DNA of 64,000 bases from Escherichia phage FL23. Positions 57,068-60,047 of the stretch are shown here, piece by piece (position 1 is the stretch's first letter; each line of letters opens with the position of its first letter). The DNA lies in sequence record PP400787; one strand, given 5' to 3'. The translations under genes were made by a program, and so were the position numbers. The notes under the pieces are model-generated. The model ran no database searches. It had not been told where the DNA came from and worked only from the letters and a program-made list of their open reading frames with translations.

Positions 57068-57097
57068 GTTTACGCTTAAGTATTAATATGGTATAAT
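57068..57097 (+). promoter_or_regulatory. Early promoter
   Basis: GTTTACG, 17-nt spacer, TATAAT (57092-57097). Confidence 0.6.
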
Positions 57098-57125: not shown

Positions 57126-57428
57126 ATGAAAACGTATAAAGAATTTATTACTGAAGCGCGAGTGAGTGCAGGTAAATTATATGCCGCTATAAATAAAAAG
57201 GCCCATTCATTTCATGATTTGTCCGATAAAGACCGTAAGAAACTTGTAAGCCTTTATATTGACAAAGAGCGTATTCTCGCTCTTCCTGGCGCTAATGAAG
57301 GTAAACAGGCAAAGCCTTTGAATGCTGTTGAAAAGAAAATTGATAACTTTGCTTCTAAATTCGGTATGTCTATGGATGACCTTCAGCAAGCGGCTATCGA
57401 AGCAGCTAAAGTAATTAAAGGTAAATAA
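57126..57428 (+). CDS. Internal-protein-like capsid-targeted protein (CTS MKTYKEFITE...; IPII-like size)
   Basis: 100-aa ORF with SD aagga and CTS-like N-terminus. Confidence 0.6.
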   Translation: MKTYKEFITEARVSAGKLYAAINKKAHSFHDLSDKDRKKLVSLYIDKERILALPGANEGKQAKPLNAVEKKIDNFASKFGMSMDDLQQAAIEAAKVIKGK

Positions 57429-57460: not shown

Positions 57461-57541
57461 ATTCATAATTACTTGGAGGGGTAAATACAGAAATGGACAA
57501 TTCATGCGCCACGGAATGGCCCAACATAAAAGAGAAACTAA

Positions 57542-58093
57542 ATGAGAACATTTTTAACTGGACCTTATCTATCCCTGATGAATGCTTTTACACACCATTC
57601 TGATGCTAGAGTAGAAGAAATTTGTAAGAACGGTTATGTCCCACCATTTGAAGATGTACTCAAGCAGTACTGTACACTTCGTTTAGACGGCGGCAGACAA
57701 TCAGGTAAATCAATTGCTGTGACTAACTTCGCTGCTAATTGGTTGTATGATGGCGGAACTGTTATTGTTCTTTCTAATACTTCAGCTTATGCTAAAATTT
57801 CTGCTAAAATTTCTGCTGGCAACATTAAAAAAGAATTTTCTCGTTATTCTAGCGATGATATTCGATTCCGTTTATTTACTGATTCTGTTCGTAGTTTTAT
57901 TGGCAATGAAGGTTCTAAATTCCGTGGATTAACGCTTTCTCGTATTCTGTACATAATTGACGAGCCTATTAAAGCTCCTGATATGGATAAGATTTACAAT
58001 GTCCATATTAAAACAGTCCAACACTGTTGCAAAAGCAAATATTGCATCGGCGGTAATGCTCGTCCTCAATTTTTTGTGATTGGAATGCAATGA
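57542..58093 (+). CDS. Small P-loop NTPase-like protein (183 aa)
   Basis: Walker A-like GGRQSGKS and Walker B-like ILYIIDE. Confidence 0.5.
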   Translation: MRTFLTGPYLSLMNAFTHHSDARVEEICKNGYVPPFEDVLKQYCTLRLDGGRQSGKSIAVTNFAANWLYDGGTVIVLSNTSAYAKISAKISAGNIKKEFSRYSSDDIRFRLFTDSVRSFIGNEGSKFRGLTLSRILYIIDEPIKAPDMDKIYNVHIKTVQHCCKSKYCIGGNARPQFFVIGMQ

Positions 58094-58398
58094 TGACCAC
58101 TATTGAAGTTTTTGAATATTGTTATAACAGCCCAGTATGCAATAAAAGGGCTCTTGTAGAAAATTACGAGATTTACCATTTTAAACCTAAACGATATCGT
58201 TTGACTAAAGGTCCGTTCGCAGGGCAGCAGGTTCTTTGTACTGCTCCTAATGCACGGTTAATGACTAGTATTCCGCATTTCAAAATGGAATTTATTGATG
58301 GGCCATTTAAGGGATTAATCACTCAAAGTTTAATGGCGTTTAATTCCGACCCATTTTTGATTAAAGAAAAAACTTGGATAAATTTATTTTCTAATTGA
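58090..58398 (+). CDS. Hypothetical protein (102 aa)
   Basis: ORF with ATGA coupling to upstream gene. Confidence 0.5.
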
Positions 58399-58405
58399 GG
58401 TTATT

Positions 58406-58768
58406 ATGAAAGCATATCAAATTCTTGAAGGTGCACATAAAGGCACTATTTATTTTGAAGACGGTACTCAAGCCCGGATTATTGTCTCTAAGACTTTTAA
58501 AGAAGACGCTATTGTAGACCCGGAAATTTTCTACGGTTTGCATGCCCGTGAAATTGAAATTGAACATCAACCTAAAGTTAAAATTGAAGGTGGTCAACAT
58601 CTGAACGTTAACGTTCTGCGTCGTGAAACTCTGGAAGATGCAGTTAAGCATCCGGAAAAATATCCGCAGCTGACCATCCGTGTATCCGGTTATGCAGTTC
58701 GCTTTAACTCTCTGACTCCGGAACAGCAGCGCGACGTTATCGCTCGTACCTTTACCGAGAGTCTATAA
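58406..58768 (+). CDS. Autonomous glycyl-radical cofactor-like protein (GrcA/YfiD-like; T4 Y06I-like)
   Basis: C-terminal 60 residues (...[60 protein letters not shown]) carry the glycyl-radical motif RVSGY; SD gagg. Confidence 0.75.
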
Positions 58769-58989
58769 TGGCTAAATTGATTATAGAAGGGTCTGAAGAT
58801 GTTTTAAAATGTTTTGCCGCCTGGTTTAGTTGCTCAGGCGAGCAATCATTCACTGAAGCATTTAGAATGGGTGATATTACTGGAAACTATCCGACAACTG
58901 ATATCACTGTACGTGGATATGGTATTAATGAACCTATTCGTTTAGTTGAATACGATTTATGTACTGGTGAGGAAGTCAAATATGATTGA
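58768..58989 (+). CDS. Hypothetical protein (73 aa)
   Basis: ORF coupled (TAATG) to upstream gene. Confidence 0.45.
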   Translation: MAKLIIEGSEDVLKCFAAWFSCSGEQSFTEAFRMGDITGNYPTTDITVRGYGINEPIRLVEYDLCTGEEVKYD

Positions 58990-59248
58990 AGATATTAAGG
59001 GTTATAAACCACATACTGAAGAGAAAATAGGTAAAGTAAATGCTATTAAAGACGCTGAAGTTCGTTTAGGACTTATCTTTGACGCTTTATACGATGAATT
59101 TTGGGAAGCATTTGATAGCTGTGAAGATGATGAACTCGCGAAGAATTACGCCGAAAGCCTCGATCAGTTAACTATTGCTAAAACGAAACTCAAAGAAGCT
59201 AGTATGTGGGCTTGTCGTGCTGTGTTCCAACCAGAGGAAAAATATTAA
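58982..59248 (+). CDS. Hypothetical protein (88 aa)
   Basis: Verified ATG 58982 overlapping upstream stop. Confidence 0.45.
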
Positions 59249-59526
59249 TGGCTCAATTAAGCGCAGGGTTTGGTTATGAGTATTATACTGTCCCTCGTCG
59301 TGTATCTATTGCTCCTAAGAAAATTCAAAGTCTTGATGATTTCCAGGAAGTAGTCCGTAAAGCTTTCCAGGACTATGCACGTTATCTTAAAGAAGATTCA
59401 CAGGACTGCCTCGAAGAAGATGAAATTGCTTACTATGAGCAACGTCTTGAACAGCTTAAAAACTTACATGAGGTTCGTGCAGAAGTTACAAAGTCTATGA
59501 ATAAATTGATTAGATTTAAAGAATAA
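59248..59526 (+). CDS. Hypothetical protein (92 aa)
   Basis: Verified ATG 59248 (TAATG overlap). Confidence 0.45.
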
Positions 59527-59528
59527 CT

Positions 59529-59581
59529 GTTTACTTTTCCTCTTGACTGTGGTATAATTTTTCTATCAGTTAAGAGGAGAA
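59529..59581 (+). promoter_or_regulatory. Early promoter with SD-sequestering stem-loop (PeSL-like) for regB
   Basis: GTTTACT, 17-nt spacer, TATAAT (59553-59558); 10-bp stem ttttcctctt (59535-59544) with aagaggagaa (59572-59581, contains SD). Confidence 0.65.
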
Positions 59582-59585
59582 TAAC

Positions 59586-60047
59586 ATGACTATCAATACA
59601 GAAGTTTTTATCCGTAGAAATAAGCTTCGTCGTCACTTTGAGTCGGAGTTTCGTCAAATTAACAATGAGATTCGTGAGGCATCAAAAGCAGCAGGGGTCT
59701 CATCGTTTCATCTAAAATATTCTCAGCATCTTCTTGATCGTGCAATTCAACGGGAGATTGATGAGACATATGTTTTTGAATTATTCCACAAAATAAAAGA
59801 CCATGTTTTAGAAGTTAATGAATTCCTGAGTATGCCTCCGCGTCCTGACATTGATGAGGATTTTATTGATGGGGTTGAATACCGTCCTGGACGTTTAGAA
59901 ATCACAGATGGAAATCTTTGGCTTGGATTTACAGTTTGTAAACCTAATGCAAAGTTCAAAGACCCGTCACTTCAATGTAGGATGGCAATTATTAACAGTC
60001 GTCGTTTACCAGGAAAGGCTTCTAAAGCAGTAATTAAAACTCAATGA
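59586..60047 (+). CDS. regB: RegB site-specific endoribonuclease
   Basis: 153-aa ORF, same length as T4 RegB; position upstream of vs/tk. Confidence 0.75.
   Translation: MTINTEVFIRRNKLRRHFESEFRQINNEIREASKAAGVSSFHLKYSQHLLDRAIQREIDETYVFELFHKIKDHVLEVNEFLSMPPRPDIDEDFIDGVEYRPGRLEITDGNLWLGFTVCKPNAKFKDPSLQCRMAIINSRRLPGKASKAVIKTQ

Follow-up and report, generated by a model that had tools for sequence, protein, structure and literature searches.

Probable overwriting of the glycyl-radical domain of a T4-type phage vs.6 gene by the grcA allele of Escherichia coli

An open reading frame (ORF) of Escherichia phage FL23 (record PP400787), lying at positions 58,406–58,768 of the 64,000-nucleotide stretch that was analysed (the window), encodes a relative of GrcA (also called YfiD), a stand-alone glycyl-radical protein of Escherichia coli. 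By sequence and gene order the ORF is the orthologue of vs.6 of phage T4, an already known gene whose product is Y06I. It most probably represents an old phage homologue of grcA in which the part encoding the structured domain has been overwritten by the grcA of E. coli. The ORF and its segments are as follows.

58406..58768, plus strand: vs.6/Y06I orthologue, a GrcA-like ORF of 120 amino acids (aa), assigned from the ORF listing, Pfam, phrog, the 6OWR match and synteny.
58406..58582, plus strand: phage-lineage N-terminal half, codons 1–59, recognized by hhalign, G+C content at third codon positions (GC3), codon score and identity to RB69 and T4.
58584..58755, plus strand: probable host-derived conversion tract encoding the structured glycyl-radical domain, identical at 171/172 positions to nucleotides (nt) 200–371 of E. 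coli grcA.
58756..58768, plus strand: unconverted 3′ tail (ACC GAG AGT CTA TAA), with 4 synonymous differences from E. coli.

The ORF was compared by blastn with 5,426 complete E. coli genomes and matched grcA in every one of them, with ORF nt 141–363 being 91.5% identical. Beneath this average lies a mosaic: nt 179–350 agree at 171/172 positions, the last 12 nt carry the four synonymous differences, and nt 1–178 are weakly similar. A megablast search of the full 64-kb window against the same genomes returned 58584–58776 as its sole match (E-value 2e-81), so the signal is far beyond chance and unique within the window. The initial annotation, made from the letters alone, had placed the left edge of host-like sequence at about 58585 and proposed BLASTN of the 3′ part against E. 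coli grcA; the edge was found at 58584, within one base. At this left junction, at codon 59/60, weak similarity (24/38, ~63%, directly to the left of the tract) gives way to 99% identity, while the right junction falls in the last four codons. The tail GAG AGT CTA TAATGGC beyond it is common to Slopekvirus-like phages without the E. coli tract, and is thus ancestral phage sequence. The megablast match extends 5–8 nt past the stop codon, and a vestige of the host 3′ untranslated region was considered there; it was rejected because tract-free phages, too, have the TAATG(G/T)C overlap with vs.5, which is therefore phage sequence.

The two halves also differ in codon usage, as the initial annotation had described (host-like codons in the 3′ part, phage-like ones in the N-terminal part). 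GC3 is 0.24 in codons 1–59 and 0.41 in codons 60–120. In the 3′ half leucine is encoded by CTG in 5/6 codons, compared with ~7% CTG across the window ORFs, and proline by CCG in 3/3. A codon-typicality score, referred to 1,455 61-codon windows drawn from the window ORFs, places the 3′ half in the lowest 1.4% and the 5′ half at the 41st percentile. Nucleotide similarity to the host gene (171/172) is thus present and codon usage (GC3 0.24 vs 0.41) is not uniform, the two points on which the earlier proposal was open to refutation.

The donor was ranked among 161 host grcA sequences, comprising 81 species representatives and 80 metagenome contigs. The tract matches E. coli at 171/172 positions, another Escherichia species at 169/172, and every other genus at no more than 157/172. 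Synonymous divergence (dS) in the tract is 0–0.024 between phage and E. coli (0.024 for the window), compared with 0.048 between E. coli and the second Escherichia species, 0.42 between E. coli and Citrobacter (0.54 in the N-part), and 1.13 between E. coli and Salmonella, whose protein differs at two residues. By this comparison the donor is E. coli itself, and the claim that the 3′ part is relatively recent host sequence holds. The residues LEDAVK within the tract are widespread, being shared with E. coli by Yersinia, Serratia, Erwinia, Pasteurellaceae and Citrobacter; taken with the host codons of the tract, and with a divergence of the E. coli tract from that of its relatives that resembles the divergence of the N-part, this indicates transfer from host to phage.

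Although single-sequence similarity is weak, the N-terminal half is homologous to that of GrcA. Profiles built from nine diverse phage N-halves and ten host GrcA N-halves (residues 1–66) were aligned with hhalign end to end, with 96.9% probability and an E-value of 1.7e-10, at 31% identity over 59 columns. Intermediate forms of the N-half, such as SIWLIE..ARCLVAK, are found in metagenomic phage contigs. Homologues of vs.6 occur in ~1,500 phage records. In several T4-like groups (L090–L094) and in T5-like phages they are full-length, with a uniformly diverged 3′ half of GC3 0.2–0.4 that is at most about 80% identical to any sampled host, none of which exceeds 84%. With old phage sequence on both sides of the host DNA, an internal segment has been replaced, rather than a terminus fused. 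The features expected of gene conversion were found together: near-identity at synonymous sites to one host allele, sharp junctions, diverged but homologous flanks, and discordance between tract and flanks. The best reading of these sequences is accordingly that host grcA would have converted a resident phage homologue, and that vs.6 is not a chimera of unrelated parts.

Other phage contigs were noted alongside these. One set of metagenome contigs of ~32–154 kb (L102–L107 and L113) carries vs.6 homologues of 130–137 aa with an N-half much nearer to bacterial GrcA (GSIWLIE..NKARCLVAK) and a Pasteurellaceae-type NPDKYPQL motif; their best host match is Haemophilus, at ~80–83%, and they look like intermediates between host-type and T4-type N-halves. 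IMG/VR contigs of 142–180 kb (L095–L101), whose Slopekvirus-like affiliation is a guess, share close N-halves joined to two host-type C-termini, LEDAVK...TESL and LLDAVE...TESL, with intermediate GC3 (0.39–0.46). No sampled host grcA exceeds 84% identity in their tract region, and they may represent older conversion events or unsampled donors. A contig flagged as viral (L112) that encodes a full-length bacterial grcA (MITGIQITK...) was considered as a third, Yersinia-derived phage case and rejected, as were L153–L162, which proved to be pflB 3′ ends. These IMG/VR ‘viral’ contigs are host regions or prophage flanks, and all were excluded from the phage vs.6 set.

A parallel to the coliphage tract is found in Klebsiella phages of the genus Jiaodavirus (e.g. 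15882-6-2 and KPV15), in which a phage-type N-half with a GC3 of 0.25 is followed by a 3′ half with a GC3 of 0.57. Over a 157-nt core, the Jiaodavirus tract matches K. pneumoniae grcA at 155–156 positions and E. coli grcA at 137–138, whereas the tract of Tequatrovirus and RB69 matches E. coli at 155–156 and K. pneumoniae at 137–138; the two host alleles agree with each other at 138/157. The reference used for K. pneumoniae, locus L167, was assigned to that species by 100% identity to its record NZ_CP093490 across 981 nt. At the protein level, Jiaodavirus has LLDAVE, the derived residues of the Klebsiella/Salmonella clade. Its left junction lies at the same codon as in the coliphages, and its right junction ~25 nt before the stop codon. 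The K. pneumoniae-type allele is present in ~138 Klebsiella phage records. On these comparisons Jiaodavirus is an independent second case, with K. pneumoniae grcA as the donor. As a side observation, several PLSDB ‘plasmid’ entries (CP125156.1, of 5.37 Mb, NZ_OL790696.1 and others) proved to be whole chromosomes, or pieces of them, from K. pneumoniae, E. coli and Proteus, which allowed a K. pneumoniae grcA reference to be recognized in that collection.

Among coliphages, 646 phage records contain a vs.6 at least 90% identical to that of the window; the tract is at least 90% identical to that of E. coli in 646 records and at least 95% identical in 638. Between the window and T4, nucleotide identity is 77.6% in the 300 nt upstream of the gene, 89.8% in the N-part, 98.8% in the tract and 79.9% in the 220 nt downstream, and dS is 0.40 in the N-part but 0.024 in the tract, where one synonymous difference was observed with ~13 expected (binomial P 2e-6). 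The tracts of T4, OES_C-2, RB69 and six IMG/VR contigs each carry 0–4 private changes from the E. coli allele and vary at their right-hand end. AT-biased decay of the tract was also considered, but these private changes (~6 GC-to-AT vs 5 AT-to-GC) are too few to be informative. The carrier haplotypes are themselves mosaic. The 300 nt upstream and the vs.6 N-part show 99% identity to RB69 (Mosigvirus), the N-part alone 98.9%, and 78–90% identity to T4; the region 220–600 nt downstream of vs.6 is 94% T4-like and 73% RB69-like, and the vs.5 of the window is of a third type (89% and 80%). The tract was considered as the crossover point of this RB69-like/T4-like mosaic and rejected, as the switch lies further downstream, in vs.5–vs.4. 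The coliphage tract is thus of more recent origin than the haplotypes in which it sits, which implies either repeated acquisition or spread by recombination between phages.

Several other histories were weighed against conversion of a resident homologue. The initial annotation had pictured a relatively recent capture of host sequence, fused to a phage-specific N-terminus; on this model illegitimate joining of the host grcA 3′ end to an unrelated N-terminal coding sequence would have created a new chimeric gene. The abrupt step at codon 59/60, where similarity goes from weak to 99% identity, the phage codon usage of the N-half and the restriction of the Pfam Gly_radical match to residues 60–101 speak for such a fusion, but we consider it improbable, and this part of the annotation did not survive. 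The N-half is homologous to that of GrcA (hhalign 96.9%, E 1.7e-10; phmmer alignment to 6OWR from residue 21), many phage genera, among them other T4-like genera and T5-like phages, have full-length homologues whose 3′ half is diverged and phage-like, and the last 12 nt are old phage sequence beyond the tract, which makes the host DNA an internal patch. A single ancient acquisition of grcA by the ancestor of the T-even phages, followed by vertical descent, would require the host-likeness to result from extreme constraint on protein and codons. The 61 C-terminal residues are indeed highly conserved in all hosts and phages, yet a constrained protein cannot hold synonymous sites to the allele of a single host species: E. 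coli and Citrobacter encode an identical C-terminal protein at a dS of 0.42, and Salmonella, with two residue differences, stands at 1.13 from E. coli, compared with 0–0.024 for the phage tract. Jiaodavirus moreover has the K. pneumoniae allele instead, and the unconverted phages, at GC3 0.2–0.3 and 75–80% identity, show what the long-term state looks like. Ancient acquisition is therefore very hard to credit.

Transfer in the opposite direction, with phage DNA converting the 3′ half of E. coli grcA, might be suggested by the occurrence of LEDAVK in E. coli and the T-even phages, as against L(L/M)DAVE in Klebsiella, Salmonella and Enterobacter. We regard it as extremely unlikely, because LEDAVK is the widespread state from Yersinia to Citrobacter, the codons of the tract are of host and not of phage type, the divergence of the E. 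coli tract from its relatives is ordinary and comparable to that of the N-part, and the allele is present in 5,426/5,426 E. coli genomes. The remaining alternative is a variant of conversion itself, in which a single host-to-phage event was followed by spread through Tequatrovirus and Mosigvirus by phage–phage recombination. Exchange between these genera has taken place at this very locus (the window agrees with RB69 at 99% from vs.8 through the vs.6 N-part and is T4-like 220–600 nt downstream), the left junction is the same in all phages, and isolates from Yersinia, Hafnia and Serratia retain the E. coli allele. Against it, the variants of the tract radiate from the E. coli sequence as a star, each with 0–4 private changes, and their right ends differ (ACT/ACC, GAA/GAG, AGC/AGT, CTG/TTG/CTA), as expected from several events, although later shuffling among phages could yield the same star and the same varied ends. 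A single event with subsequent spread is quite possible, though we lean slightly away from it.

The sequences show vs.6 to be a mosaic. T4-like and T5-like phages widely carry an old grcA homologue of their own, and in this lineage ~172 bp encoding its structured C-terminal domain were replaced by the chromosomal grcA allele of E. coli. We propose that the replacement would have occurred by homologous or homeologous recombination of host DNA with the resident phage copy during infection, that is, by gene conversion, a natural form of marker rescue, and T4 recombination-dependent replication would use host DNA fragments in the process. The tract starts at the onset of phage–host nucleotide similarity (GAAGGTGG, codon 60) and ends ~12 nt before the stop codon, where the relatedness of host and phage ceases downstream. 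An extension of this proposal, on which we are evenly divided, is that vs.6 acts as a landing pad at which host DNA repeatedly overwrites virulent T4-like phages with the allele of the main host of each lineage.

Several observations weigh against conversion or its wider reading. With an identity of 24/38 to the left of the tract, a classical double crossover is not obviously possible there, and the left junction may need microhomology-mediated or copy-choice joining, or selection among recombinants. Within the coliphage clade, repeated host-to-phage conversion and a single event with phage–phage spread would look alike. A tract with the Salmonella allele was found in none of the phage records, the top identity band being 90–95% (3 records); Tequatroviruses from Yersinia, Hafnia and Serratia retain the E. 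coli allele; and the tract is absent from E. coli phages belonging to other genera, ECD7 for example. Together these make conversion rare rather than routine. The NCBIfam equivalog model for GrcA, TIGR04365, scores the phage protein at 158.6 bits (match to residues 18–120), below its cutoff of 170, owing to the divergent N-half, compared with 233.9 bits for E. coli GrcA. The function ascribed to the protein of this phage rests on orthology to T4 Y06I.

As to identity, the phage protein belongs with the known vs.6 group. The claim in the initial annotation that T4 has a homologue, Y06I, and that the gene is therefore not new was borne out by synteny and by ~95% aa identity to T4 vs.6. The phrog_1209 profile (the T4 vs.6 group) aligns residues 1–120 with profile positions 1–121 at 211 bits, and the ORF keeps the place that vs.6 has in T4 and RB69, flanked by vs.7 and vs.5 and upstream of regB. 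The protein also has the attributes of the GrcA/YfiD family (IPR011140), namely a stand-alone size (120 aa, between the vs.7 stop and the vs.5 start, as against ~85 kDa for a glycyl radical enzyme), a C-terminal Gly_radical domain with an RVSGY loop, and an N-half that is homologous at the profile–profile level. Pfam Gly_radical (PF01228) scores 67.2 bits against a cutoff of 22.2, over residues 60–101 only; the GrcA structure (PDB 6OWR) is matched with an E-value of 1.8e-42, phmmer aligning query residues 21–120; and PflB residues 696–759 align with an E-value of 3e-26. The last 61 residues equal E. coli GrcA 67–127 at 60/61 positions (I60 vs V67), in agreement with the earlier remark that the final ~60 codons match the C-terminus of GrcA/YfiD, including RVSGY, which lies at residues 92–96.

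58679..58693, plus strand: RVSGY glycyl-radical motif, residues 92–96, from the translation and from alignment to 6OWR and PflB (1CM5/1H16).
58688–58690, plus strand: codon of Gly95, the counterpart of GrcA Gly102 and PflB Gly734.

Identity as a full-length pyruvate formate-lyase (PFL) was considered and rejected, the alignment covering only residues 55–120 and the final 66 positions of TIGR01255 (89.6 bits, cutoff 994). PFL (PflB/TdcE) is a ~760-aa catalytic barrel with a Cys418/Cys419 active site. Phage records label the same 120-aa gene variously as ‘pyruvate formate-lyase’, ‘2-ketobutyrate formate-lyase’, ‘acetyltransferase-related’, ‘glycerol dehydratase radical’ or ‘hypothetical protein’. 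This analysis thus exposes the inconsistent annotation of vs.6, and the ‘pyruvate formate-lyase’ labels on phage vs.6 are misnomers. The gene is conserved in all six T4-like genomes compared by Nolan et al. 2006 (PMC1524935).

According to PMC8683613, residues 1–60 of YfiD form a disordered N-half that aids binding to cleaved PFL, and residues 61–127 form a structured C-half with the fold of PFL residues 693–759, which carries the radical glycine. When PflB has been cleaved by O2 at Gly734, YfiD binds, PFL-activating enzyme (PFL-AE) activates YfiD, and activity returns. The same paper, citing Wagner et al. 2001, reports that T4 Y06I is activated by PFL-AE and rescues oxygen-cleaved PFL, and that Y06I and YfiD are the two biochemically validated PFL spare-part proteins. 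By orthology, the window protein would do for the PFL of the infected cell what Y06I and YfiD do. The vs.6 product would be a 14-kDa stand-alone glycyl-radical domain, expected to receive its radical from the host activase PflA; once activated, it would dock into host PFL cut by oxygen at Gly734, and docking would restore PFL activity in the infected cell under microaerobic conditions. The host-derived tract coincides almost exactly with the structured, docking, radical-bearing domain, and the unconverted part with the disordered half. This coincidence could reflect either a selected fit to host PflB and PflA or the site at which nucleotide similarity suffices for recombination.

The closest known counterparts place these features in context. 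T4 Vs.6 (NP_049730) shares the position (vs.8–vs.7–vs.6–vs.5...regB), the length of 120 aa, ~95% aa identity and an E. coli-derived tract with an identical left junction. It differs in the haplotype of the N-part (the window is 89.8% identical to T4 and 98.9% to RB69), in R73H within the T4 tract, and in the 3′ tail, which reads ACC GAG AGT CTA in the window and ACT GAA AGT TTG in T4. E. coli GrcA/YfiD (P68066; PDB 6OWR) is likewise a ~14-kDa stand-alone protein with RVSGY, a C-domain agreeing at 60/61 residues and 171/172 bases, and a homologous N-half. In contrast, the phage N-half is ~30% identical, 7 residues shorter and without the invariant host NSFWLLD and ARC motifs, and the phage gene is expressed from an early-region gene run and not from the host grcA locus.

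Two precedents from other work come close. For cyanophage psbA and similar auxiliary metabolic genes, intragenic recombination between host and phage was reportedly described by Zeidner et al. in 2005 and Sullivan et al. in 2006. There too a metabolic gene of the host has a homologue in a virulent T4-like phage, and patches are exchanged between the two copies, leaving a mosaic of host-like composition; the vs.6 tract differs in its near-identity to the allele of a named host species, its base-level junctions, its restriction to one structural domain and its recurrence in two genera of enterobacterial phages, each with the allele of its own host. The T4 insertion/substitution system, attributed to Selick, Kreuzer and Alberts in 1988, is said to achieve plasmid-to-phage marker rescue. 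There T4 recombination enzymes copy homologous non-phage DNA of the infected cell into the phage genome, as proposed here for the vs.6 tract, but the laboratory procedure employs cloned, fully homologous phage DNA, whereas the donor of vs.6 would be the natural host chromosome, at ~80% similarity. No prior description of the host nucleotide identity of vs.6, or of its recurrence in a second phage genus, was found in the literature that could be searched, although older work on the T4 genome (e.g. Miller et al. 2003) may mention the identity; the host-specific conversion pattern is possibly a new observation on a known gene.

The gene lies in a run whose order in the window is vs.8-like, vs.7-like, the vs.6 ORF, vs.5-like, two small ORFs, regB and vs.1. 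Its position is that of T4 vs.6, annotated as ‘autonomous glycyl radical cofactor GrcA’, and of RB69 vs.6, and its TAA stop overlaps the ATG of vs.5 (TAATG, the last A being common to both). The neighbouring features are as follows.

57542..58093, plus strand: vs.8-like gene (ORF, phrog_1488; RB69 layout identical).
58090..58398, plus strand: vs.7-like gene (ORF, phrog_2049; RB69 layout identical).
58397..58400, plus strand: GAGG Shine-Dalgarno-like motif, 5 nt 5′ of the ATG and overlapping the vs.7 TGA stop (58396–58398).
58768..58989, plus strand: vs.5-like gene, 73 aa (ORF listing, phrog_1986, T4/RB69 synteny).

Window positions 57500–59600 are identical to Escherichia phage FL44 (Tequatrovirus, PP400790) except for one base in a T-run, and the FL44 record labels the same gene autonomous glycyl radical cofactor. 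The T-run, at 58064–58069, has six T in the window and seven in FL44; the window has the vs.8-like and vs.7-like genes as two overlapping genes, as in RB69, while the FL44 record has one fused coding sequence of 285 aa. The T7 run is probably a homopolymer error or a variant in the FL44 record. The FL44 annotation shows no denV-sized gene between the lysozyme gene and vs.8, in which T4 differs. Further upstream, an ORF at 57126–57428 (100 aa) matches phrog_7857, ‘internal virion protein’, and a promoter-like site with an extended –10 element lies directly 5′ of it at 57069–57097. A scan for promoters and terminators returned counts at chance level, and the only candidate early promoters that it gave on either side of the gene run are 57069–57097 and 59530–59558.

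Host DNA is degraded by T4-type phages, whose genomes resemble those of their hosts almost nowhere at the nucleotide level. Here, one domain of one gene is the host’s own allele in two phage genera with two hosts, which implies that chromosomal DNA can enter virulent phage genomes by homology-guided replacement. The gene itself is ordinary, and the interest lies in a clean natural example of gene conversion from host to virulent phage. The pattern suggests that a spare part fitting host PflB and PflA exactly is selected for, or at least tolerated, and the tract allele could tell which host a T4-like phage recently had. If vs.6 does act as a landing pad, its domain would be re-copied from the grcA of E. 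coli in Tequatrovirus and Mosigvirus and of K. pneumoniae in Jiaodavirus, so that vs.6 would evolve together with the host, keeping a record of the recent host species of its lineage. It would then offer a quantifiable case of natural gene conversion from host to lytic phage and a host-assignment marker for metagenomic T4-like phages.

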